From an uncultured Prochlorococcus sp. (GTDB lineage: Bacteria; Cyanobacteriota; Cyanobacteriia; PCC-6307; Cyanobiaceae): DNA of 64,000 nt. Positions 2,043-37,808 of this stretch are shown here, piece after piece. The notes below the pieces were generated by a model. The model did not search any database and was not told the DNA's origin. It was given only the letters and a program-made list of their open reading frames with translations. Numbering within the stretch: position 1 is the first letter of the stretch; each line of letters starts with the position of its first letter. Made by a program: the position numbers and the translations under genes. The stretch is taken from contig CACNYU010000001.1 in assembly GCA_902624785.1 (NCBI GenBank), positions 18,737 to 82,736 on the forward strand. Reading direction: 5' to 3'.

Positions 2043-2417
2043 CTAGGCTTGAGGGAATCCACTATGAAGGCCATATGTAATTATTGTAAAGGTTGCGAAT
2101 ACAACACCTAAAGAGACTGATGTGTAAAGTGGGTCTAACTTCAAATTATTCAGTCTTCCAAAATCTGCCACAACAAGCGACTTCATAGAGTATTTTTTTC
2201 TATCTGGTATTTCAGGTAAATTATCACTATTTAATAATGAACCAAGTATTGGTTGCGTTTCTAATTCATCTGAATTTATATTTTGGTTTGTCGAAGAAAC
2301 ATTATCTTGCTTAAAAAATCTTGGGAACATATATACATGCCACAAAGCTATAAGTGCTACCCAAATGATAAGACTTACTCCTGCAATACCAAAAATAAAG
2401 AACTTTAAAAATTCCAT
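2043..2417 (-). CDS. Hypothetical two-TM membrane protein
   Basis: 124-aa ORF with hydrophobic helices at both ends. Confidence 0.6.
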   Translation of the reverse strand: MEFLKFFIFGIAGVSLIIWVALIALWHVYMFPRFFKQDNVSSTNQNINSDELETQPILGSLLNSDNLPEIPDRKKYSMKSLVVADFGRLNNLKLDPLYTSVSLGVVFATFTIITYGLHSGFPQA

Positions 2418-4826: not shown

Positions 4827-5231
4827 TTAAAGAATCTGAGTAATGCCCTCCTTATACAAGATGATAGTAGATAAAAGTCCTGTAGCCCAAGATAGACCTC
4901 TTGCAGCTGGAATATTAAGGACATAGGAAATAATATACAAAATCCTCACAAAAGGATGAGTCCAAGCAGCAATTATTGCTAAATTTGAATCTGGCGATGT
5001 TAATAAACAAAATAAACAAGCGGGCGCATGTAATGAAATACTTTCCCAACAATTTTGATGGCACCAAACTGCCCTCTTACCAAAATCAGGTAAATCATTA
5101 AATAAGGCCCTTGGTGCTGACATGTTTTCAACAGAATAACCAGCTTTAATCCTTCCTAAGGTAAGAGGTATTATTGAGGCCAAAACAACTAAAATTGAGA
5201 GACATAGACTCCAAGCATATGTGATTTGCAT
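4827..5231 (-). CDS. MAPEG family membrane protein
   Basis: PR..RAVWCHQNCWES and ..R..Y pattern of MAPEG. Confidence 0.85.
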   Translation of the reverse strand: MQITYAWSLCLSILVVLASIIPLTLGRIKAGYSVENMSAPRALFNDLPDFGKRAVWCHQNCWESISLHAPACLFCLLTSPDSNLAIIAAWTHPFVRILYIISYVLNIPAARGLSWATGLLSTIILYKEGITQIL

Positions 5232-5334
5232 TTAAAAGATTTTTTCTAGAGCCTAGTAAGAATAGTTATATAATGTGAATGATTAGTAAGCAAATTTCGT
5301 AAAAATCAATAGAAAAATAAACAATTCAAATAAT

Positions 5335-5622
5335 TTAAAATTGCATGGCTAGTATTGCGCCAAGAAAAAAAACTGTAGGAATTCCCAATGCATTTACAGC
5401 TAAAGTTCTTACAGTGAAAACAGGATAACCTTCTTCTGGTCTACCACTTTCAGGTACAAGTGCAGAGTCTTCCCAAACTTGATAATTTTTAAAAGGAGCT
5501 ACATCCTTTTTTGGAAGTCCAAGAGGTGTTAAACGGAATACATCCCATTTACCTAACCAATAAACAGTTGATATCCAAGCAATTACAAGTGGTGCGATAA
5601 CTAAAACGACTCTGAAATCCAT
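5335..5622 (-). CDS. Long cytochrome b559 beta (PsbF)-like protein with PsbY-like N-terminal helix; heme His replaced by Asn
   Basis: C-terminus [30 protein letters not shown] matches PsbF ([25 protein letters not shown]); probable start [11 protein letters not shown] at 5622. Confidence 0.8.
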
Positions 5623-5877
5623 CTTGAGGAACATTAATTTACGTAGCCTTATTCTCATATATTCCTCTTTTTATTTAGGACAATGTAAATTAATAGTTAT
5701 TATTTTTAATATTTGAACCAAAAGAAATATCATTTTATACATATATACGTATAAAACCGTGAATTATTTCACCTGCTTTTTAAAAATTATTTTTTATGAA
5801 AACATTTAAGATTATTTCATAGTTTTGGTTTACGGAGTTTTTAAGAAACATATTTTTTAATACAATAAATTCTAAAA

Positions 5878-6162
5878 ATGAAAAAATTTTTTAAATTTAT
5901 TAAAACCTTTTTATTTGTCTTAATTTGGCTCATGTTCTGCTCTTTTCTTGAAAAATATTGGAGAATTATTCACTGGGAATTTATATTTCTCAAGGTTAGA
6001 TACGTTTTTGATTATACATTTTGGTTCGCTTTAAAGAAATCACTCTTTAATTTTGATATTGGTTTTTACTTGGAAGAATTATTTAAATACGCTTCATATG
6101 AGCTGCCTAAAGAGGTCTTTAAATTTATGCCAATCATTTTTGTGTTAAAAATAACTAGGTAA
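5878..6162 (+). CDS. Hypothetical aromatic-rich membrane protein
   Basis: 94-aa ORF. Confidence 0.45.
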   Translation: MKKFFKFIKTFLFVLIWLMFCSFLEKYWRIIHWEFIFLKVRYVFDYTFWFALKKSLFNFDIGFYLEELFKYASYELPKEVFKFMPIIFVLKITR

Positions 6163-6458: not shown

Positions 6459-6743
6459 ATGAATAAAAGCTATTGGTTGAAAAAGATTTCTATCGGAAAT
6501 TCAGACTTATTTCTTGAATATATTCGAACAGTACTGCCTTGGTTAAAATCTGTTGGAGGAATTATCATTAAAAAGGATATTACACAAGATTCAGATTCTT
6601 CTTATTGGGATGGTGGTAACGTCGGCATGGTGATTGAATTTGACTCAAAAATTGCTGCCAAAAAAGCTTTTTACTCCGATGTTTTTCAAAATTATCTAAT
6701 TTCAAGAGATTTAACTGACCTGGTAACTATAAGTACCCTATAA
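6459..6743 (+). CDS. DUF1330 domain protein
   Basis: Y..V.PWL..VGG and VIEFDS..AAKKAFYS pattern. Confidence 0.75.
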   Translation: MNKSYWLKKISIGNSDLFLEYIRTVLPWLKSVGGIIIKKDITQDSDSSYWDGGNVGMVIEFDSKIAAKKAFYSDVFQNYLISRDLTDLVTISTL

Positions 6744-6912: not shown

Positions 6913-7083
6913 TTAATAACCCTTTAAGTAATAAACAAATCCCAAAATTAAAGAAATTATAATAATTGAAAAAATAATTAGAGATTTTTTTGATTCCCCT
7001 TCAGAAATAACATTTATCTCAGGTTCCAAGGCAAAGCCATTTTGTCTTCCACCACTCTCTGTTGTATACCCTTTTTTATCCAT
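6913..7083 (-). CDS. Psb34/Ssl1498-like PSII assembly microprotein (56 aa, not in ORF track)
   Basis: MDKKGYTTESGGRQNGFALEPEINV followed by one C-terminal TM; matches the Psb34 motif YTTDEGGRLNNFAIEP. Confidence 0.75.
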   Translation of the reverse strand: MDKKGYTTESGGRQNGFALEPEINVISEGESKKSLIIFSIIIISLILGFVYYLKGY

Positions 7084-27338: not shown

Positions 27339-29048
27339 TTACAGCAGAAAATATCTTTGAGACATTGGAACTTCATTTAGGGGTTCGCAAGTGAGGAGTT
27401 CTCCATCTGCAAAAACTTCATAAGTCTGGGGATCTACCGATAAAGCAGGTAATTTATTATTGAGTTTTAAATTTTGTTTTCCTATAGATCTAGTATTTTT
27501 TACGGCAACACATCTTTTTTGTAAACCAAGCTGCTTCGGGATATCAAGTTCAATAGCATTTTTACTTAAAAAAAGATATGAACTATTGATCTTTGATAAG
27601 CCATAATTGGCAAACATAGGTCTTCCATATACTGGTCCTGGAGTAGGTATTGAAGCATTTGCATCTCCCATTTGAGCCCATACAATAGAACCATTCTTAA
27701 CAACAATTTCTGGTTTTACACCAAAGAATGCTGGTTTCCATAAAACCAAATCTGCTAATTTACCTTTTTCAATAGAACCTACATACTCATCTAAGCCATG
27801 AGCAATGGCTGGGTTTATAGTTACTTTTGAGATATATCTTTTAACTCGAAAATTATCATTTCTTTCTGAATCTTCTTGTAAAAATCCTCTTTGTAATTTC
27901 ATCTTATGGGCTGTCTGAAATGTTCTTGTTATAACTTCGCCTACTCTCCCCATAGCTTGAGAATCACTTGCAATTATCGAAAATGCACCAATATCATGCA
28001 GAATGTCTTCAGCCGCTATAGTCTCTCTTCTAATTCTAGATTCAGCGAAAGCTATATCCTCGGGGATTTTTGAATCTAAATGATGACAAACCATAAGCAT
28101 ATCCAAATGTTCTTCAAGTGTATTTTTTGTATAAGGGCGAGTTGGATTAGTACTACTTGGTAGGATATTCTTCTCTCCGCAAATTTTTATGATATCTGGA
28201 GCATGACCTCCTCCTGCACCCTCAGTATGAAAAGTATGAATGGTTCTACCAGATATAGAATTTATAGTATCTTCAACAAAACCGGCTTCATTTAAAGTAT
28301 CAGTGTGGATACATACTTGAACATCGTATAAATCAGCAACATTTAAACAGGAGTTTATCGTCGCTGGTGTAGTACCCCAATCTTCATGTAATTTTAATCC
28401 ACATGCTCCTGCATTAACTTGATCAACAAGATTCTTTTCATTCGTAGAGTTACCTTTTCCAAAGAAGCCTAAATTCACAGGAAAAGCCTCTGCAGATTGA
28501 AGCATTCTACCTATATGAAAAGATCCTGGTGTACATGTTGTGGCATTAGTTCCTGTTGCAGGACCTGTACCTCCACCAAGCATTGTAGTTATACCAGATG
28601 CTAATGCCGTTTCTATTTGCTGAGGGCATATAAAATGTATATGAGTATCAATTGATCCGGCTGTTAATATATGGCCCTCTCCTGCAATCACCTCTGTTGA
28701 GGCTCCTATAATTATGTCAACATTATCTTGTATATCTGGATTACCTGCTTTACCAATATTTGAGATATTTCCATCTTTGATTCCAATATCTGCTTTTACA
28801 ATTCCCCACCAATCAACAATTAGAGCATTAGTTATAACTGTATCAACAGCACCATCATCTCTAGAAATCTGTGACTGCCCCATACCGTCTCTGATAACCT
28901 TACCGCCTCCAAATTTAACTTCGTCTCCATAAGAGGTAAAATCTTTTTCAACCTCAATTATTAACTGAGTATCAGCAAGTCTTACTCTATCTCCAGTTGT
29001 AGGACCATAAGTTTGAGAATATGTTTTTTTATCTATCTTATAAGCCAT
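27339..29048 (-). CDS. ureC: Urease alpha subunit
   Basis: Ni-site motifs [33 protein letters not shown] and SDSQAMG. Confidence 0.99.
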
Positions 29049-29051
29049 AAT

Positions 29052-29372
29052 TTAAATTTTTAACGAGCCATTTATCAGATTATTAAAACCGTATACATTT
29101 CTCAAACCACAATAAGGAACAAGTTTTACTTCAGTTGTATCACCAGGCTCAAATCTAATAGAAGTTCCTGCAGGAATATCTAAACGCATACCTAATGCTC
29201 TATCTCTATCAAAATCGAGGAATTTGTTCGTTTCATAGAAATGAAAATGTGATCCAACTTGAATTGGCCTATCACCTAAATTAGATACAATTAAATTTTT
29301 CGATTCTTTTGAACTATTTAGCTCTATGAATCCTTCCTCAGAAATTATTTCTCCAGGTATTAAATATTTCAT
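29052..29372 (-). CDS. ureB: Urease beta subunit
   Basis: [13 protein letters not shown] and [10 protein letters not shown] motifs. Confidence 0.98.
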
Positions 29373-29374
29373 AA

Positions 29375-29677
29375 TTAATTTATTGGATTATGGATTGTAA
29401 CTAATTTGGTTCCATCAGGAAACATTGCTTCTATTTGTACCTCGTTAACCATTTCAGGAATTCCTTCCATAACTTGATCTCTAGAGAGCCAATTATTACC
29501 TTCAGACATTAATTCACTTACACTTTTGCCATCTCTTGCGCCCTCAAGAACTTGAAAGCTTAAGAAAGCAACTGCTTCTGGATAATTTAATTTTAAACCT
29601 CTATTCAATCTTCTTTCAGCAAGTTGCGCTGCTGAAAATATTAATAATTTATCTTTTTCTTGTGGAGTTAGATGCAT
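29375..29677 (-). CDS. ureA: Urease gamma subunit
   Basis: [11 protein letters not shown] and [13 protein letters not shown] motifs. Confidence 0.98.
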
Positions 29678-29728
29678 TTATTTAAAGTATTATTTAATTA
29701 ATTTTTAAAATGTTACTGGTGAACATAA

Positions 29729-30646
29729 TTAATAATTAATCGCATCCTGTAATGGCCAGACCCCTTCATATTTTGGCTTTAAAAAACCACTTGATTTTCT
29801 AAATTGAAGCCAAATCCAAAAGAAATTTTGTCTAGCTTCCTGAGTAGATGACCCCAGAAATCTCACTGATATTCCATTTTCTAATAGACCAAAAGAAAGA
29901 TTATTTTTTTTACCCCTAAAATAATCTTTGATTAAAATAAAAATTTCTTCCAATTTCTCCTGGGAGAAATTTTTGTTACATATCCAAATTAATGATCCAA
30001 AAACAGGCATGTAGTCCATACCACTTTTTGATTCAAAGACATTTTTATTTAATTCAATCTGATCAATAAATTCCCAATCATCGAATAAATGATTTTCCCT
30101 TTTTATTTTTAATTTTGATTTAAAGATGCCTTTTTCTATAGATTCTCCTTTTGAGCTTCTACCAAGCCTTACTAAATCACAATAAACAAAACTTGAATTA
30201 TTTTTCAATTCAACTTTTGTTTCTTGGAAAAATAAACCATTTGCAAAAATAATAGTTTCTTGAGGAAGATATTCCAAATGACTATTTTCGCCTAAATAGA
30301 AATTATTTTTCTGTAAAGTATATTTCCCCCATGGTTGTATCAATGACCTTCCAATTGAACCATAAACCTTCTGGGCCGAAGATGAAGTTATTAAAACTTT
30401 TGTATTTTCTTTTGTAATTACATCAAGATTTAACTTATCCCCTCCAACTAATCCTCCAGCAGTGTGTAAAAGAGGGACAATACATCTCCCTTCAAAATCA
30501 TGTTTTGATTTTATAAGCTTAAAAGGAGCTGAAAATTTAGAATTTAAAATGGTCTTATTGTTTTCGCTATCAAGAGAATTATTATTAGAAAATGTAAGAT
30601 AACAATTTCCTTCCCAGCATGAATCAGAATTGTTCTTCATATTCAT
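29729..30646 (-). CDS. ureD: Urease accessory protein UreD
   Basis: [11 protein letters not shown] and LEYLPQETI motifs. Confidence 0.95.
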
Positions 30647-30682
30647 ATTCTTTTTCTTTTAAGTTAATAAATTTTTAATTTT

Positions 30683-31132
30683 ATGGAAATAAATAAAAAG
30701 TTAATTGTCATTGATTGGGTAAAAAATAAAAATGTTAAAGGAAGAATACTGAATTTGACATTATGCTCTGAACAAAGAAAGATTCTTCGAGGAAGAAAAT
30801 TCTCTGATTGCAATAAAGAATTATTTTTACAACTTCCTAGAGAAGGGATAATTAATGATGGAGATATCTTTAGAACAAATCAAGAAAATATTTTTATCTG
30901 TGTAAAAGCAAGGATAGAAAATCTTTTTCAAATATATATATCTTCGAAATTAAATATGCTCAAGCTCACATATCACCTTGGTAATAGGCATGTAAGAATG
31001 GAAATTAATGATAATTATTTATTTGTAAAAGAGGATCATGTAATTAAAAATCTTTTAGAAAGTTTTGATGCAGAAATTAAATTAGTAAATAAAAAGTTTT
31101 TCCCCGAAATTGGAGCTTTTTATCATGACTAA
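30683..31132 (+). CDS. ureE: Urease accessory protein UreE
   Basis: YHLGNRH and FFPE.GA motifs; no His-rich tail. Confidence 0.95.
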   Translation: MEINKKLIVIDWVKNKNVKGRILNLTLCSEQRKILRGRKFSDCNKELFLQLPREGIINDGDIFRTNQENIFICVKARIENLFQIYISSKLNMLKLTYHLGNRHVRMEINDNYLFVKEDHVIKNLLESFDAEIKLVNKKFFPEIGAFYHD

Positions 31133-31811
31133 AAATAATTTATTTAAATATCAATTAATAAGTCCTAATTTACCTGTAGGTGGATTTTGTTATTCGGAAG
31201 GAATGGAATCTTTTTTACAAAAGAAAAATCTAAAAACTGATGAATCAATTAAAAATCTTTTATTAGATGAATTACATTTTGGTCAAATAAGAATAGAGGC
31301 AAATAGTCTTATAAAATTTTCTGATCTTTATAAAAAGTTATTTTATAAGAAAGAATGTGAAAAACTAAAAAGTGAAATTCTTAGCCTAAATAAATTTATT
31401 ATTGCTGGCAGAGATTCTAAAGCGATTAGAGATCAACAAAATCAAATGGGGAAATCTCTCCTAGATTTATCAAAAAACTTAGGCGCTGAATTTCCCTTTG
31501 ATCTTCAAAATTTGGTTACATGGCCATTAGCATGGAGTTGGGTTTGCTATTCATTTAATATTGAAAATATAGAAATGGTTGAGAATTTTATATATAATTG
31601 GACTTCAAATCAACTTAGTGCCGCCATGAGATTAATTCCCCTTGGCTCAACTAAAGCTCAAATAATTCAATATGAATTATTAGAAATAATTAATAAGATT
31701 TCCCAAGAGATTATTAATAAAAATATTAATGATATTTATGTTGGTAATGTTGGTTTATCAATGGCTCAACAAAATCATAATGATCTTTACACAAAACTTT
31801 TTAGAAATTAA
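31125..31811 (+). CDS. ureF: Urease accessory protein UreF
   Basis: [16 protein letters not shown] and H..LYTKLFRN motifs; ATG at 31125 overlaps the end of ureE. Confidence 0.95.
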
Positions 31812-32413
31812 TGACTAGCAAATTACGTGTTGGAGTTGCTGGACCTGTTGGATCAGGTAAAACAGCATTACTTGCCATTTTATGTAAAAGGTTAAAGGAT
31901 AATTTTGAAATTGCTGTTGTAACGAATGATATATATACACAAGAAGATGCAGATTTTCTTATAAAGAAAGATATTCTTGAAAAAGGAAGAATAGTTGGTG
32001 TAGAGACTGGAGGTTGCCCTCATACAGCTATTCGAGAAGACTGTTCACTTAATAAAAACGCAGTTATAGAACTTGAAAAGAAATACCATCCTTTGGATTT
32101 TATTTTCGTGGAAAGTGGTGGTGATAATCTTGCTGCAAGTTTTAGTCCTGAATTAGTGGATATTTGTATTTATGTAATAGATGTATCTGCTGGCGATAAG
32201 ATACCAAGAAAAGGTGGTCCTGGTATAACAAGATCAGATTTACTAATAATCAATAAAATTGACTTATCAAAAATGGTTGGTGCAAATTTAGAAATAATGA
32301 AAAATGATACGAATAAAATGAGAGGCTCAATGCCTTGGTTTTTTACAAATTTAAAAAACTCTGAAGGAGTCGATTTAGTAATAGATTATCTATTAAATCA
32401 AATTCCAAAATAA
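31811..32413 (+). CDS. ureG: Urease accessory GTPase UreG
   Basis: [15 protein letters not shown] and NKID motifs. Confidence 0.98.
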
Positions 32414-32571
32414 ATAATAATTTTAAATATCAAAATTTTAAATGTATTAATAATGTATTTATTTATACTTTTTTAATAATTGAATTTAAATTGATATACA
32501 TTTCTCTAATCAAGTTAAATACATAATTATCTTTATAAAGTAACAAATAAGCTTTATTATTTTATGATTAA

Positions 32572-32663
32572 GTATTAACAAATACAGAAAAATAATATTA
32601 ATAAAACCTAATTAGCAAAACGTTATAAATAATACATTTTAAAAATTCGTTGATCAATATCTT
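32572..32663 (+). promoter_or_regulatory. NtcA-activated promoter of urtA
   Basis: GTA-N8-TAC at 32572-32585; GTT-N8-TAC at 32622-32635 followed after 22 nt by TATCTT (TAN3T) at 32658-32663. Confidence 0.7.
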
Positions 32664-32705
32664 CAACATTATCCCTTTCAGGGTAATTATTAATAAACAA
32701 AATTC

Positions 32706-33986
32706 ATGAGAATTTCAAGGCGTATTTTAGCTGGCTTAGCCACAGCATCAATAGCTACAACTTTAACTTCGTGCGGAGGAGGTTCTAAAACTTCTGGAAG
32801 TTTTGACGATTCAGTAACAGTTGGCATCTTGCACTCTTTATCCGGAACAATGGCAATTTCAGAATCAACTCTTGTTGACACTGAAATAATGGCAATAGAA
32901 GAAATTAATGCCTCAGGTGGAATTACTATTGACGGTAAAAGTTACAAGATTGAGTACATCATTGAAGATGGGGCATCAGATTGGCCAACATTTGCAGAAA
33001 AATCCAAAAAACTTATAGATCAAGATAAAGTTCCTGTTGTCTTTGGTGGTTGGACATCTGCAAGTAGAAAAGCAATGTTACCAGTTTACGAATCAAAAGA
33101 CGCATTCCTTTATTACCCTATTCAATACGAAGCACAAGAATGCTCAAATAACATTTTTTATACTGGAGCAACACCTAATCAACAATCTGAACCAGCTACA
33201 GAATTTATGTATAAACGTTCACCTGCCGCAGGGGGTGATTTTTTCCTCGTAGGTTCAGATTATGTTTTCCCAAGGACATCAAATACCATTACAAAAGCTC
33301 AAGTCAAACAACTTGGTGGAAGGGTCGTTGGTGAGGATTATCTTCCACTGGGCAACACAGAAGTGGCACCAATTATTTCCAAAATCAAAAAGGCTCTTCC
33401 CTCAGGAGGAATAATTATTAATACCTTAAATGGAGACCAAAATGTAGCCTTTTTTAAACAAATCCAAGATGCTGGCATAACACCTTCAGAAGGTTATTAT
33501 GTCATGAATTATTCAATAGCCGAGGAGGAAATTAGTACTATTGGACCTGAATTCCTGGAAGGCCATTACGGTGCATGGAATTATATGATGTCTATAGATT
33601 CTCCCGCCTCTAAGAAGTTTGCTGCAAACTTTAAAAAAAGATGGGGTTCTGATCGAGTTGTAGCTGATCCACAAGAATCTGCTTACAACATGGTTTATTT
33701 ATGGAAACAAGCCGTTGAAGATGCAGGTACATTTGATGATAACGCTGTGAGAGATGCATTAATTGGGCAAAAGTTTGATGCTCCGCAAGGTCCAGTCGAA
33801 GTAATGCCTAATCATCACTTATCTCAAACTGTAAGAATTGGTGAGATTAACTCTGAAGGAGGCTTTACTATTCTTGAAGAAACTGATGTAGTTTTACCTC
33901 AGGCATGGAATCAAAAACATCCTAGTTCTAAAGGATTTGCATGCGATTGGACAGACCCTTCAAAAGGTGAAAAATATAGACTCTAG
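32706..33986 (+). CDS. urtA: Urea ABC transporter substrate-binding lipoprotein
   Basis: Lipobox LTSC; VGILHSLSGTMAISE and FGGWTSASRK motifs. Confidence 0.97.
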   Translation: MRISRRILAGLATASIATTLTSCGGGSKTSGSFDDSVTVGILHSLSGTMAISESTLVDTEIMAIEEINASGGITIDGKSYKIEYIIEDGASDWPTFAEKSKKLIDQDKVPVVFGGWTSASRKAMLPVYESKDAFLYYPIQYEAQECSNNIFYTGATPNQQSEPATEFMYKRSPAAGGDFFLVGSDYVFPRTSNTITKAQVKQLGGRVVGEDYLPLGNTEVAPIISKIKKALPSGGIIINTLNGDQNVAFFKQIQDAGITPSEGYYVMNYSIAEEEISTIGPEFLEGHYGAWNYMMSIDSPASKKFAANFKKRWGSDRVVADPQESAYNMVYLWKQAVEDAGTFDDNAVRDALIGQKFDAPQGPVEVMPNHHLSQTVRIGEINSEGGFTILEETDVVLPQAWNQKHPSSKGFACDWTDPSKGEKYRL

Positions 33987-34010
33987 TTTATTAAATATTT
34001 CCCTTATTAC

Positions 34011-34041
34011 AAGAAGAGGATTCAAATCCTCTTCTTTTTTT
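34011..34041 (+). terminator. Intra-operon hairpin/terminator after urtA
   Basis: AAGAAGAGGAT-tcaa-ATCCTCTTCTT followed by a T-run. Confidence 0.75.
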
Positions 34042-34060
34042 CAAATAATTATTTTTAAAA

Positions 34061-35215
34061 TTGGAGTTACTTTTAGATAGTATTTTTAACGGCATAGCAA
34101 TTGGTTCTGTGTTGCTTGTTGCTGCTTTGGGTTTGGCAATTGTTTTTGGATTAATGGGAGTTATTAATCTTGCACATGGAGAGCTAATGATGCTTGGTGC
34201 TTATACAACTTATGTCACTCAATTAATTTTTAAACTACCCATTCTCAAACCCTTTTACAACTGGTATGTAATTATCTCCATCTTTTTAGCATTCATTGTA
34301 AGTGGAGTAGTCGGCATAATACTAGAAAAAACGATTATCAGAAAACTATACGGAAGTCCTCTAGAAACTTTGTTAGCGACATGGGGTGTAAGTTTGATTT
34401 TACAACAATTTGTAAGATCGGTTCCTCTTTCATATGGATCTGGTTTAATTATTTCTCTTCTGATTGGCATGGTTCTACCATTATTTTTTCCAACAAAAAT
34501 TAAAGAGTCTATTAAATTTAAATACTACAAACTTGCTTCTTGGTCGTTTGCAACATTAATTGGAATATTATCTGCAGAATTAATATCTTCTTTAATTAGT
34601 AAGCTAGGAAGAGCTAGCTCAAGAAATGTTGATGTAACGGCACCTGCATGGATGAGAGGTCAGATAGAGATACTTGGAAACACATTTCCTAAAACAAGAT
34701 TAATGATTATTATTATCACGTTAATATCAGTGATAGCAATAATATGTTTTTTAAATCAGAGTGCGTGGGGGATAAGAATTAGGGCAGTTACACAAAATAG
34801 GCAAATGTGTGATTGTCTTGGAATTTCAACAGAAAAAGTTGATGTAATTACATTTGGGATTGGTTCTGGATTGGCAGGAGTTGCAGGAGTTGCAGTATCT
34901 CTTCTTGGATCAGTAGGCCCAAATGTTGGAGGAAACTATATTGTTGGATGCTTCATGGTAGTCGTCCTAGGAGGGGTTGGTAATCTACTTGGGACTATAT
35001 TTGCTTCCTTTGGAATTGGCATTATGACTGACCTAATTGGAGCTGGAAGACTATTAAATATTTGGCCAAATATGCCATTATCTCTCTCGAACACAATTAA
35101 TTTTTTTGCGACAACAAGTATGGCAAGAGTAATGATTTTTGCACTTATAGTTATATTTTTACAATTCAAGCCTTCAGGCTTATTCCCTCAAAAGGGAAGG
35201 ATGGTTGAAAGCTGA
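34061..35215 (+). CDS. urtB: Urea ABC transporter permease
   Basis: FGLMGVINLAHGE motif; operon position. Confidence 0.95.
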   Translation: MELLLDSIFNGIAIGSVLLVAALGLAIVFGLMGVINLAHGELMMLGAYTTYVTQLIFKLPILKPFYNWYVIISIFLAFIVSGVVGIILEKTIIRKLYGSPLETLLATWGVSLILQQFVRSVPLSYGSGLIISLLIGMVLPLFFPTKIKESIKFKYYKLASWSFATLIGILSAELISSLISKLGRASSRNVDVTAPAWMRGQIEILGNTFPKTRLMIIIITLISVIAIICFLNQSAWGIRIRAVTQNRQMCDCLGISTEKVDVITFGIGSGLAGVAGVAVSLLGSVGPNVGGNYIVGCFMVVVLGGVGNLLGTIFASFGIGIMTDLIGAGRLLNIWPNMPLSLSNTINFFATTSMARVMIFALIVIFLQFKPSGLFPQKGRMVES

Positions 35216-36339
35216 TGAATACAAAAAATATCAAAATTAATGGAAGATTGAAATTTATTTTTTGGGTTTTATTAATAGCTTTTGTAGTAGCGGCTCCTTC
35301 ATTACTTCCCGTTTTTAGATTGAATTTATTGGGTAGATATCTTTCTTTGGCAATAGTTGCTTTAGGGGTTGATCTTATCTGGGGATTCACTGGATTATTA
35401 AGTCTTGGGCAAGGAATATTTTTTACATTAGGTGGTTATTGCGTAGCTATGTATTTGCAACTAAATAGTTCATCAGAATTTCCAAATAATATTCCTGAAT
35501 TCTTTGCACTTTATGGTGTAAAAGATTTACCTTTCTTCTGGGCGCCATTTAAATCTCTTTTTTTCACTTTATTTGCTGCTTGGCTAATACCTGCTCTAGT
35601 TGCCGCGATATTAGGGTTTCTAGTATTCAGAAATAGAATAAAAGGTGTTTATTTTTCAATTCTTACTCAGGCATCCCTTTTAGTATTTTTTAATTTCTTC
35701 AATGGACAACAAAAATTAATTAACGGCACCAATGGTCTGAAAACTGATGTAACTCAATTATTTGGTCAAATGGTTGGATCAGAGTTAATTCAGAGATATT
35801 TTTTCTGGATTACTGTTTTTTTAGTAATAACAGCATGGTTTTTCTCTAAATGGTTAATAAAGGGTCGTTTTGGCAATATCCTTATTGGAATACGAGATGA
35901 CGAGCCAAGAGTAAGATTTACAGGTTACAATCCAGTTCTTTTTAAGACCATTATTTTCTCGATTGCAGGTGCTTTAGCAGGCATATCAGGAGCTTTATAT
36001 ACTGTTCAATCTGGAATAGTTTCACCCCAATTCATGACTGTACCCTTTTCTATAGAAATGGTTATATGGGTAGCAGTAGGTGGAAGGGGAACATTATTAG
36101 GGGCAATTCTTGGTGCAGTATTTATAAATTATGCAAAAAGTTTAGTAAGCGAAGCATTGCCTGCAAGTTGGATGTTTATACAGGGAGGTTTATTCATTCT
36201 TGTAGTAACAACATTGCCGCAAGGTATCTTAGGTTGGTTATATAGTGAAAGCCCTAGAAATCTTTTGCAGAGGTTTGGATTTATAAGAAAAATTAAAACC
36301 TACCCTAGTTTAGAAATTAATAAAAATGGAGAAAGTTAA
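35215..36339 (+). CDS. urtC: Urea ABC transporter permease
   Basis: DLIWGFTGLLSLGQ and VIWVAVGGRG motifs. Confidence 0.95.
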   Translation: MNTKNIKINGRLKFIFWVLLIAFVVAAPSLLPVFRLNLLGRYLSLAIVALGVDLIWGFTGLLSLGQGIFFTLGGYCVAMYLQLNSSSEFPNNIPEFFALYGVKDLPFFWAPFKSLFFTLFAAWLIPALVAAILGFLVFRNRIKGVYFSILTQASLLVFFNFFNGQQKLINGTNGLKTDVTQLFGQMVGSELIQRYFFWITVFLVITAWFFSKWLIKGRFGNILIGIRDDEPRVRFTGYNPVLFKTIIFSIAGALAGISGALYTVQSGIVSPQFMTVPFSIEMVIWVAVGGRGTLLGAILGAVFINYAKSLVSEALPASWMFIQGGLFILVVTTLPQGILGWLYSESPRNLLQRFGFIRKIKTYPSLEINKNGES

Positions 36340-36342
36340 ATC

Positions 36343-37095
36343 ATGAAATCTGATACAGAGAATCTCTTATCCCTTGTTGATGTTACGGTAAATTTTGAAG
36401 GTTTCTTAGCTCTAAATAATTTAAATCTAAAAATCAAAAGAGGTGAGCTTAGAGCAATTATCGGACCAAATGGAGCAGGTAAAACAACATTTCTTGATGT
36501 TATTACAGGAAAGGTTAAACCTACTAAAGGTCAAGTTATTTTCAAAGAAATTTCCTTAATAGGAAGAAAAGAACATAAAATTGCAAGATTAGGAGTTGGG
36601 AGAAAATTCCAAAGTCCAAGAGTGTTTGAGAATTTATCTGTTCAAGAGAATCTTGAATTATCTGTTAGTTCTCCCAAAAGTCCTCTTCATCTTCTTAAGA
36701 AAAATATCATTAAGGATCAATTAGAAGAGGTATTTCAACTAATGAAAGTTGTAAATTTAACCAAAAAAAATGATATAAAAGCAGGAGCTTTATCTCATGG
36801 ACAAAAACAATGGCTTGAAATAGCTATGTTGCTAGGTCAAAAACCAGATTTAATGCTTGTTGATGAACCAGTTGCCGGATTAACTGATGAAGAGACTGAT
36901 CTAACAGCAGATTTATTAAAATCCCTTGCCGGTAAAAATACTGTTCTGATAATTGATCATGATATGGACTTTATAAGAAGACTAGATTGTAAGGTAACCG
37001 TTCTTAACCAAGGGGCTGTCTTATTTGAAGGAAATATGGATACAATTCAAAATAATCAAAAGGTAATTGACGTTTACTTAGGGAGACCAGATTAA
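36343..37095 (+). CDS. urtD: Urea ABC transporter ATP-binding protein
   Basis: GPNGAGKT and LSHGQKQWLE motifs. Confidence 0.95.
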   Translation: MKSDTENLLSLVDVTVNFEGFLALNNLNLKIKRGELRAIIGPNGAGKTTFLDVITGKVKPTKGQVIFKEISLIGRKEHKIARLGVGRKFQSPRVFENLSVQENLELSVSSPKSPLHLLKKNIIKDQLEEVFQLMKVVNLTKKNDIKAGALSHGQKQWLEIAMLLGQKPDLMLVDEPVAGLTDEETDLTADLLKSLAGKNTVLIIDHDMDFIRRLDCKVTVLNQGAVLFEGNMDTIQNNQKVIDVYLGRPD

Positions 37096-37097
37096 TT

Positions 37098-37808
37098 ATG
37101 AGTAAATTAATTGAAATTAAATCATTAAATATATTTTATGGGGAGAGTCATATTTTAAGAGATATAGATCTTAGTGTTAAGGCAGGAGAAATGGTGTGTG
37201 TTATTGGAAGGAATGGGGTTGGTAAAACTACTTTACTTAAATCATTAATAGGACTCCTTAAAACAAAATCAGGAGAAATAAATTTTCTAGGCGAAAATAT
37301 CAACAGACAAATGCCACATCAAAGAGCGAGAAAAGGAATCGCTTATGTTCCCCAAGGTAGAGAAATAATTCCTTACTTAACGGTAGAAGAGAATTTAATG
37401 CTTGGAATGGAATCCCTGCCAGGTGGATTATCAAAGAACAAAAAAATAGATGATTTTATATACGAATTATTTCCAATACTAAAAGAATTTCTCTCAAGAA
37501 AAGGTGGTGACCTTAGTGGCGGGCAACAACAACAATTATCTATCGCAAGAGCTTTACTTGGGGAACCAAAATTACTTCTCTTAGATGAACCAACAGAAGG
37601 AATTCAACCCAATATTATTTTGGATATTGAAAGCGCAGTGACAAAAATTATTTTAGAAAAAGGTATTGGTGTTTTACTTGTAGAACAACATTTACATTTT
37701 GTTCGCCAGGCGGATAGGTATTATGCAATGCAAAGAGGAGGTATCGTAGCAAGTGGCGATTCCAGTGAATTAAGTAAAGAGGTTATCTCAAAATTTCTAT
37801 CAGTTTAA
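37098..37808 (+). CDS. urtE: Urea ABC transporter ATP-binding protein
   Basis: GRNGVGKT, LSGGQQQQ and DEPTEGIQP motifs. Confidence 0.95.
   Translation: MSKLIEIKSLNIFYGESHILRDIDLSVKAGEMVCVIGRNGVGKTTLLKSLIGLLKTKSGEINFLGENINRQMPHQRARKGIAYVPQGREIIPYLTVEENLMLGMESLPGGLSKNKKIDDFIYELFPILKEFLSRKGGDLSGGQQQQLSIARALLGEPKLLLLDEPTEGIQPNIILDIESAVTKIILEKGIGVLLVEQHLHFVRQADRYYAMQRGGIVASGDSSELSKEVISKFLSV

Follow-up and report, generated by a model that had tools for sequence, protein, structure and literature searches.

A PsbY-like helix fused to a PsbF-like helix without its heme-ligating histidine in Prochlorococcus: a candidate beta subunit for a putative heme-free cytochrome b559

Introduction

Cytochrome b559 is built from PsbE and PsbF, which contribute one heme-ligating histidine each and are both required for the D2 assembly module, according to the review text available to us. 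According to published text (PMC8689208), conservation of the psbEFLJ operon and of the bis-histidine heme extends to all oxygenic phototrophs; the role of that heme is treated as a long-standing open question, and a review excerpt places PsbY beside cytochrome b559. What, then, does a cyanobacterium do with a PsbF-like protein that lacks the histidine? We address this question for a small gene in a 64,000-nucleotide stretch of an uncultured Prochlorococcus genome (contig CACNYU010000001.1; hereafter, the window). The initial annotation proposed that this gene encodes a PsbY–PsbF fusion, an alternative subunit that could pair with PsbE.

Results

A long-form PsbF gene outside the psbEFLJ operon

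The gene lies on the minus strand at 5335..5622, and its translation, which ends with a stop at 5335, is a 95-residue protein that matches NCBIfam NF002720, "cytochrome b559 beta, long form," over residues 1–95 with 188.3 bits against a cut-off of 127. This whole-length match puts it in the same family as the "long form" entries NF002720 and NF002717 (PRK02561.1-4 and -1; "PsbF-like protein" in UniRef), so the initial guess that the family was already annotated was right. We refer to the protein as the long form. The gene is also, as first described, outside psbEFLJ: its neighbors are a MAPEG gene (4827–5231), an ORF without assignment (5878–6162) and a DUF1330 gene (6459–6743), and there is no psbE, psbL or psbJ near it in the window. 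In-frame ATGs are found upstream at 5634 and 5658; because stops interrupt the 5′ extension of the ORF in two of the three relatives checked from the window's clade (defined below), the start is likely at 5622. A purine-rich stretch (5656–5672, minus strand) precedes the ATG at 5658 and is kept in clade relatives, including those in which the ATG falls out of frame or a stop closes it off, and it is possibly regulatory. Scans for promoters and terminators around the gene gave nothing exceeding shuffles. Metatranscriptome contigs of two studies cover 5333–5756, which is not proof of transcription or habitat since these are contigs, from runs picked with the window itself, and the adjacent 5 kb is patchily covered too. 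Elsewhere in the window, a 56-aa ORF (6913–7083, minus strand) has a weak match, under the cut-off, to the PSII assembly protein Psb34 (E=7.6e-4).

Canonical PsbF is a single helix of ~45 aa, whereas the long form has 95 residues and two helices. AlphaFold predicts helices at residues 3–25 and 71–94 (pLDDT 68.5), joined by a linker modeled as low-confidence coil (pLDDT 56–60). The two hydrophobic segments, with a linker that carries seven K/R and seven D/E, fit a hairpin, although the pTM of the model is only 0.38. Searches with this model returned no Foldseek match at E<=0.001 and, in VIA-align, generic hairpins with a best Z of 5.8. The N-terminus of PsbY is lumenal, and we infer that the linker (residues 27–65; 5428..5544, minus strand), in which N46, Q48, W50 and D52 fall in columns at least 90% conserved, lies on the cytoplasmic (heme) side.

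The PsbF-like helix has lost its heme ligand under purifying selection

The initial reading of the C-terminal 30 residues as PsbF-like holds well for the helix at residues 66–95 (5338..5427, minus strand). PF00283 gives the long form 36.3 bits against a cut-off of 30, the best PDB matches of its last 30 residues are PsbF chains (E 2e-10), and the canonical PsbF model TIGR01333 scores it just under its cut-off (58.2 versus 61.15 bits). Residues 64–95 align with residues 11–42 of the 45-aa PsbF chain 11yo_F, and this alignment confirms that VRWLAVH has become VRTLAVN: N77 (codon AAT, 5392..5394) occupies the site of the axial ligand His24, and R72 and T73 (5404..5409) stand at Arg19 and Trp20. 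Compared with canonical PsbF, then, the long form retains Arg19, which is reported to bind a heme propionate (PMC4709441, in the text available), but replaces both Trp20 and His24, carries 65 extra N-terminal residues and lies outside psbEFLJ.

These replacements are a property of the family. Our collection held 121 sequences (the query and 120 listed homologues), of which 88 were aligned after fragments and chimeras were excluded. Position 77 is asparagine in 88/88 of these versus histidine in 24/24 canonical PsbF proteins; R72 is found in 87/88 and T73 in 86/88, with tryptophan at the T73 site in all 24 canonical sequences. Against those 24, W to T and H to N are therefore the fixed or near-fixed differences at the heme site. 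A motif count at the ligand site across all 121 sequences gave 108 N, no H, six other letters and seven cases without the motif, the last 13 being known from this count alone. The 88 show no variation at W22, L23, W26 and N77 or in most of the PsbF part.

The pairwise dN/dS of the long form is 0.034–0.065 in four genome groups; by part, it is lowest in the PsbF part (0.007–0.026) and reaches 0.05–0.10 in the linker. The same 95 residues are encoded in G232 and G234, where 27 and 49 of the 288 nucleotides differ, the ORF of G234 being three residues longer. Given that N77 is invariant, that both asparagine codons are used (of 59 genes, 44 have AAT and 15 AAC) and that dN/dS is this low, the histidine-to-asparagine change is not a matter of chance. 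Neutral evolution among the homologues, which would have spoken against a functional subunit, gives way here to clear purifying selection.

The N-terminal helix resembles PsbY in part

The N-terminal transmembrane helix (residues 1–26; 5545..5622, minus strand) ends in W22-L23-x-x-W26. With the long form alone as query, the Pfam PsbY model reaches only residues 1–15 (E=0.072; 13.4 bits against a cut-off of 24), and the curated NF009711-type PsbY score is 10.6 bits against 48. However, two divergent long-form homologues match Pfam PsbY at E 5e-4 and 5e-3, and a 46-aa free-standing copy of the N-terminal module (P0288) exceeds the Pfam cut-off. HHalign compared a profile of residues 1–30 to a 29-sequence PsbY profile with a probability of 94.4%, versus at most 12% for each of the controls (PsbL, PsbJ, PsbE, PsbF and a neighboring membrane protein), and none of 200 column shuffles reached the PsbY score. 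Among 1987 hydrophobic N-termini in the window's genome, that of the long form ranks 1–2 for PsbY likeness.

The alignment to PsbY (PF06298, NF009711) is gapless over 22 columns with M1, D2, R4, V8 and P11 in register, but W18 and N22 of PsbY read S18 and W22 in the long form, and the C-terminal A..Q part of PsbY gives way to W-L-x-x-W. PsbY is a free 40-aa protein, whereas here it is a fused helix that scores under both curated cut-offs. At the level of sequence, the N-terminal helix appears to be PsbY-derived, with a likeness that is real but partial: the homology proposed in the initial annotation stands, and the tryptophan that it had counted as shared is out of register.

Related modules occur on their own. 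Directly downstream of the long form at loci in the window's genus, g1 (L036, L040, L041), is a 61-aa tandem stand-alone copy of the module, which is present in 27/30 other g1 genomes, 0/5 of the window's clade and 0/12 genomes of the low-light lineage g39 (its cluster has 541 members). A further family of PsbY-like paralogues, 32–40 aa long and in up to three copies, is found in high-light genomes (L075:1396–1620, L195–L203, L205, L206 and L208), sometimes near the long form or adjoining psbY; HHalign relates it to PsbY at 96% and to the long-form N-terminus at 84%.

The long form is patchily distributed in small-genome Prochlorococcus

We found the long form in 31/200 genomes of the family, all of 1.5–2.0 Mb, and in 104/207 genomes of the window's genus. 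Its absence from our matches in the other 103/207, including 37/92 near-complete genomes, indicates that it is dispensable where psbF exists. The named homologues are Prochlorococcus, and the window's genome has 29.7% GC. A preprint line, in the text available, places an extra psbF copy in the ancestor of small-genome Prochlorococcus by a poorly understood mechanism (10.1101/2020.11.24.395392). The gene tree broadly mirrors genome groups, gene neighborhoods vary, and none of 67 pattern matches in viral contigs was confirmed as a long form. Strains MIT9312 and SS120 carry psbF as well as the long form. One complete genome (G244; L280, L281) has two long-form copies in addition to psbE and psbF, and in g10 and g27 genomes (L032, L033, L035, L037, L038 and L051) a hydrophobic mini-ORF of 31–36 aa lies 3′ of the long form; the window has no such mini-ORF.

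psbF and psbY are gone from the window's own clade

Within the high-light genus g1, the window belongs to a clade of two deep branches, which we define as 11 genomes with one common PsbE variant; three of them carry long forms 97–100% identical to that of the window. The assembly of the window's genome, at 56% completeness, does not include the psbE locus, so the loss of psbF is demonstrated in its relatives only. In 11/11 clade genomes psbE leads directly to psbL across an AT-rich spacer of 103–115 nt that holds no psbF ORF and no detectable remnant of one, whereas psbF is present at 19/19 other loci of the genus (30 of 252 psbE matches were fetched, 11 from the clade and 19 others). The 11 genomes contain no PF00283 match besides psbE and the long form, which is present in all seven with an assembled locus; in the other four that locus is unassembled or broken. 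The psbY gene between tRNA-Lys and trmFO is absent at 4/4 clade loci and present in 5/5 controls, and contig C59 of the window's genome likewise has no psbY between these two genes.

PTOX was not found in three of three incomplete clade genomes and was found in 2/2 controls. The low-iron clades HLIII and HLIV are described as deep high-light branches without PTOX (PMC3296057, in the text available), and the window's clade may correspond to these ecotypes. The window also encodes, at 27339–37808, what we take from the translations to be a urease and urea-transporter cluster; available text reports a urease cluster in only two of six HLIII/IV genomes.

A second loss in a low-light lineage

At 24/24 psbE loci of g39 and in its sister G003, psbF is absent and psbL follows psbE after about 30 nt. 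Beyond psbE and the long form, there is no PsbF/PsbE-type match in G003 or in the eight g39 genomes assembled as single contigs, and the PsbY model likewise has no match in G003 or in 25 g39 genomes (0/1 and 0/25). Three g39 genomes show no long form, with the locus unassembled or broken by a contig end in all three. A GTDB scan for the same pattern, psbE 27–33 nt before psbL, returned 32 matches, 32/32 of them titled Prochlorococcus, with strains MIT 1012 and MIT 0916 among them. For the cultured strain NATL2A (clade LLI), a supplement lists homologues of psbE and the PsbF-like gene and none of psbF (PMC6517427, supplement file 6, seen in part), and PSII yield and oxygen production have been measured in this strain, according to the text available. 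PsbE T26 (Thr27 in other numbering) is alanine in all 24 g39 loci and in G003, and only there. Ala34 of PsbE reads serine in the window's clade (L272–L274) and in the His-to-Gln genomes described below (L157–L160). Both replacements are possible compensating changes.

A rough two-gene tree parts the g39/G003 group from the window's clade with support of 83–88. Two psbF losses are the simplest reading, since the spacers differ and the intervening high-light genomes keep the operon psbF. The PsbY model also had no match in G019 and G097 (in G019, trmFO was not found either), and in G017 psbY is present, further upstream.

The window encodes a small membrane protein without assignment at 2043–2417 (minus strand), 3 kb from the long form; at most g1 loci, and likewise in G003 and g39, the gene for its homologue is the divergent neighbor of the long form. 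On the far side of that homologue, g39 and G003 have a flavodoxin gene, which in the window's genome is on a separate contig, so this arrangement does not establish a link of the long form to an iron regulon.

Another route to a single histidine

In four genomes of other low-light lineages (G001, G013, G034 and G064), it is PsbE that has lost its ligand: His is replaced by Gln, Tyr19 by Phe, and the propionate-binding Arg18 by Lys or, in one of them, Asp. These genomes retain a psbF with its histidine, reading VRFFAVH (psbE loci L157–L160; L191–L194), and no long form was found in them. Canonical psbY is absent at trmFO at the three loci checked, and the PsbY model gives only partial matches in all four. 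Each has a free 35–43 aa gene for the N-terminal module with its W-L-x-x-W motif, in three of the four at the long-form locus of G010 and G036. This is likely an independent route to a one-histidine b559, and the shared module suggests that a tryptophan-capped PsbY variant accompanies the loss of either axial histidine. As close kin are not independent, we count two losses and one convergent route rather than dozens.

Discussion

The proposal that the long form is an alternative subunit is supported and was, if anything, understated: in the window's clade and in a low-light lineage it is the sole PsbF, and psbY is gone as well. Very probably, these losses leave the fusion as the sole candidate for two sites, that of PsbF and that of PsbY. 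We also think it probable that the long form is a working beta subunit with PsbE in the window's clade, and that the b559 there is heme-free. Its PsbF helix would take the beta position beside PsbE and D2, since assembly of the D2 module requires both PsbE and PsbF and there is no other PsbF. The tethered PsbY helix would occupy the PsbY site adjoining b559, and the Trp-rich cytoplasmic end together with the linker may replace the heme as the brace of the two helices. The gain would be one iron and one heme fewer per PSII, and the cost b559-based photoprotection; where a normal psbF persists, the long form may serve as an optional swap-in subunit.

A heme-free b559 is suggested by laboratory mutants with one histidine missing, which give apo-b559 or little PSII. 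According to review text available to us, T. elongatus alpha His-to-Ala/Met mutants contain apo-b559 and assemble active PSII, a result that may reflect pseudorevertants, and most substitutions of His22 in Synechocystis abolish photoautotrophy and leave little PSII. A Chlamydomonas His mutant is reported, again in partial text, to show faster photoactivation in low light, a gain that suits the low-light lineages but not the window's high-light clade, where losing b559 photoprotection should cost. Nor has the heme site been erased: in the clades without psbF, the PsbE protein retains its His, Arg8, Arg18 and Tyr19, and beta-Arg19 is kept in the long form. A search for cytochrome c550 detected it in the control but in none of four genomes, so that a PSII with a heme-free b559 would be left with one iron. 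Iron saving is plausible, although a single iron per PSII amounts to little compared with PSI and cytochrome b6f.

The retained contacts invite the reading that the long form is a beta subunit of a b559 whose heme is held by the PsbE histidine alone, leaving the iron 5-coordinate unless water or Asn supplies the sixth ligand and making it a low-potential or ligand-binding cytochrome. For this speak the persistence of PsbE His, Arg8, Arg18, Tyr19 and beta-Arg19 in both psbF-less clades and, from a review seen in part, Synechocystis H22K-alpha, which holds heme with a displaced ligand; the published text on other mutants points the opposite way, with apo-b559 after His-to-Ala/Met and a disrupted pocket after His-to-Tyr/Met/Cys. 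The His-to-Gln genomes cut both ways, since they keep the PsbF histidine, so that one His is always left, but lack the propionate-binding Arg18, which is once an Asp; with beta-Trp20 lost too in the long form, we regard a one-histidine heme as unlikely. Chlorophyll also needs just one axial ligand, Asn and Gln are known as chlorophyll ligands, and both routes swap a His for an amide and retain the other His, all of which would suit divinyl chlorophyll or another pigment bound to the remaining histidine in the former heme pocket, the Trp-rich module packing against this pigment. The propionate-binding arginines retained in the long-form clades make such a pigment site very improbable.

Two further readings would take the long form out of mature PSII. 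PsbE retains all heme contacts and b559 helix homodimers bind heme in vitro, so a bis-histidine PsbE homodimer could keep the heme and leave the long form as an assembly or repair helper, and an extra PsbF at a non-canonical site has been suggested in Synechococcus 7335 (PMC8689208, in the text available). That genomes lacking psbF have the long form wherever its locus is assembled, that constraint on the protein is strongest in its PsbF part, and that each loss of psbF came with a loss of psbY, which a fusion occupying the two sites would predict, renders this quite improbable. The patchy occurrence in the high-light genus (104/207) and the varied neighborhoods might instead suggest a decaying or island-borne paralogue with no photosynthetic role, but this is largely refuted by dN/dS of 0.03–0.065 and by the loss of psbF in the clade. 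With the same residues kept at 9–17% DNA divergence, a gene tree that broadly follows genome groups, no viral copy found, and the long form as sole PsbF in two lineages, we give decay hardly any credence.

The closest architectural parallel to our preferred reading, a heme-free b559 with the long form as beta subunit, is the PsbF–PsbY fusion of Acaryochloris (PDB 7YMI chain F, 99 aa), which joins the same two subunits in one chain but in the reverse order, PsbF first, with its histidine intact and with a b-type cytochrome present in the structure. The PsbF part of that chain is modeled in PSII, and the structure paper, in the text available, states that PsbY is not in the map; the matched text does not mention a fusion for this chain (P0170 in our set). 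The closest functional parallels are the engineered apo-b559 mutants (PsbE H23A/H23M in T. elongatus and His22 in Synechocystis, as described in the text available), in which, as here, one axial histidine is removed; those mutants have no compensating subunit, whereas the present change is natural, fixed and accompanied by a fused PsbY-like helix.

The long form is a named, unstudied family and a variant of cytochrome b559, and the NF002720 family name is silent on its PsbY origin, its lost ligand and its status as sole PsbF in some clades. Outside Cyanorak annotation and bioRxiv supplements, which may record psbF losses, our literature search, with matched text from PMC4823308, PMC9214863, PMC10889353, PMC5451487, PMC10119275, PMC2151091, PMC13642990 and PMC9297868 among others, found no functional paper on it, and neither the link to PsbY nor the missing ligand nor the losses of psbF were described there; the only long-form data that we found there, again in partial text, were a transcript change of the MIT9312 gene and the preprint line on an extra psbF.

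We see an even chance that the bis-histidine b559 heme has been dropped more than once in wild Prochlorococcus, through two psbF and psbY deletions with the fusion and again through PsbE His to Gln with the free module. If true, natural PSII complexes exist that contain no heme and only one iron, and one of these probably belongs to clades of iron-starved oceans. Cultured psbF-less strains, such as NATL2A according to the PMC6517427 table (seen in part), would be natural photoautotrophic heme-ligand mutants, and the fusion would offer a natural suppressor module for a His-less b559. A further consequence would be a candidate iron-sparing change in the PSII core of very abundant ocean phototrophs.
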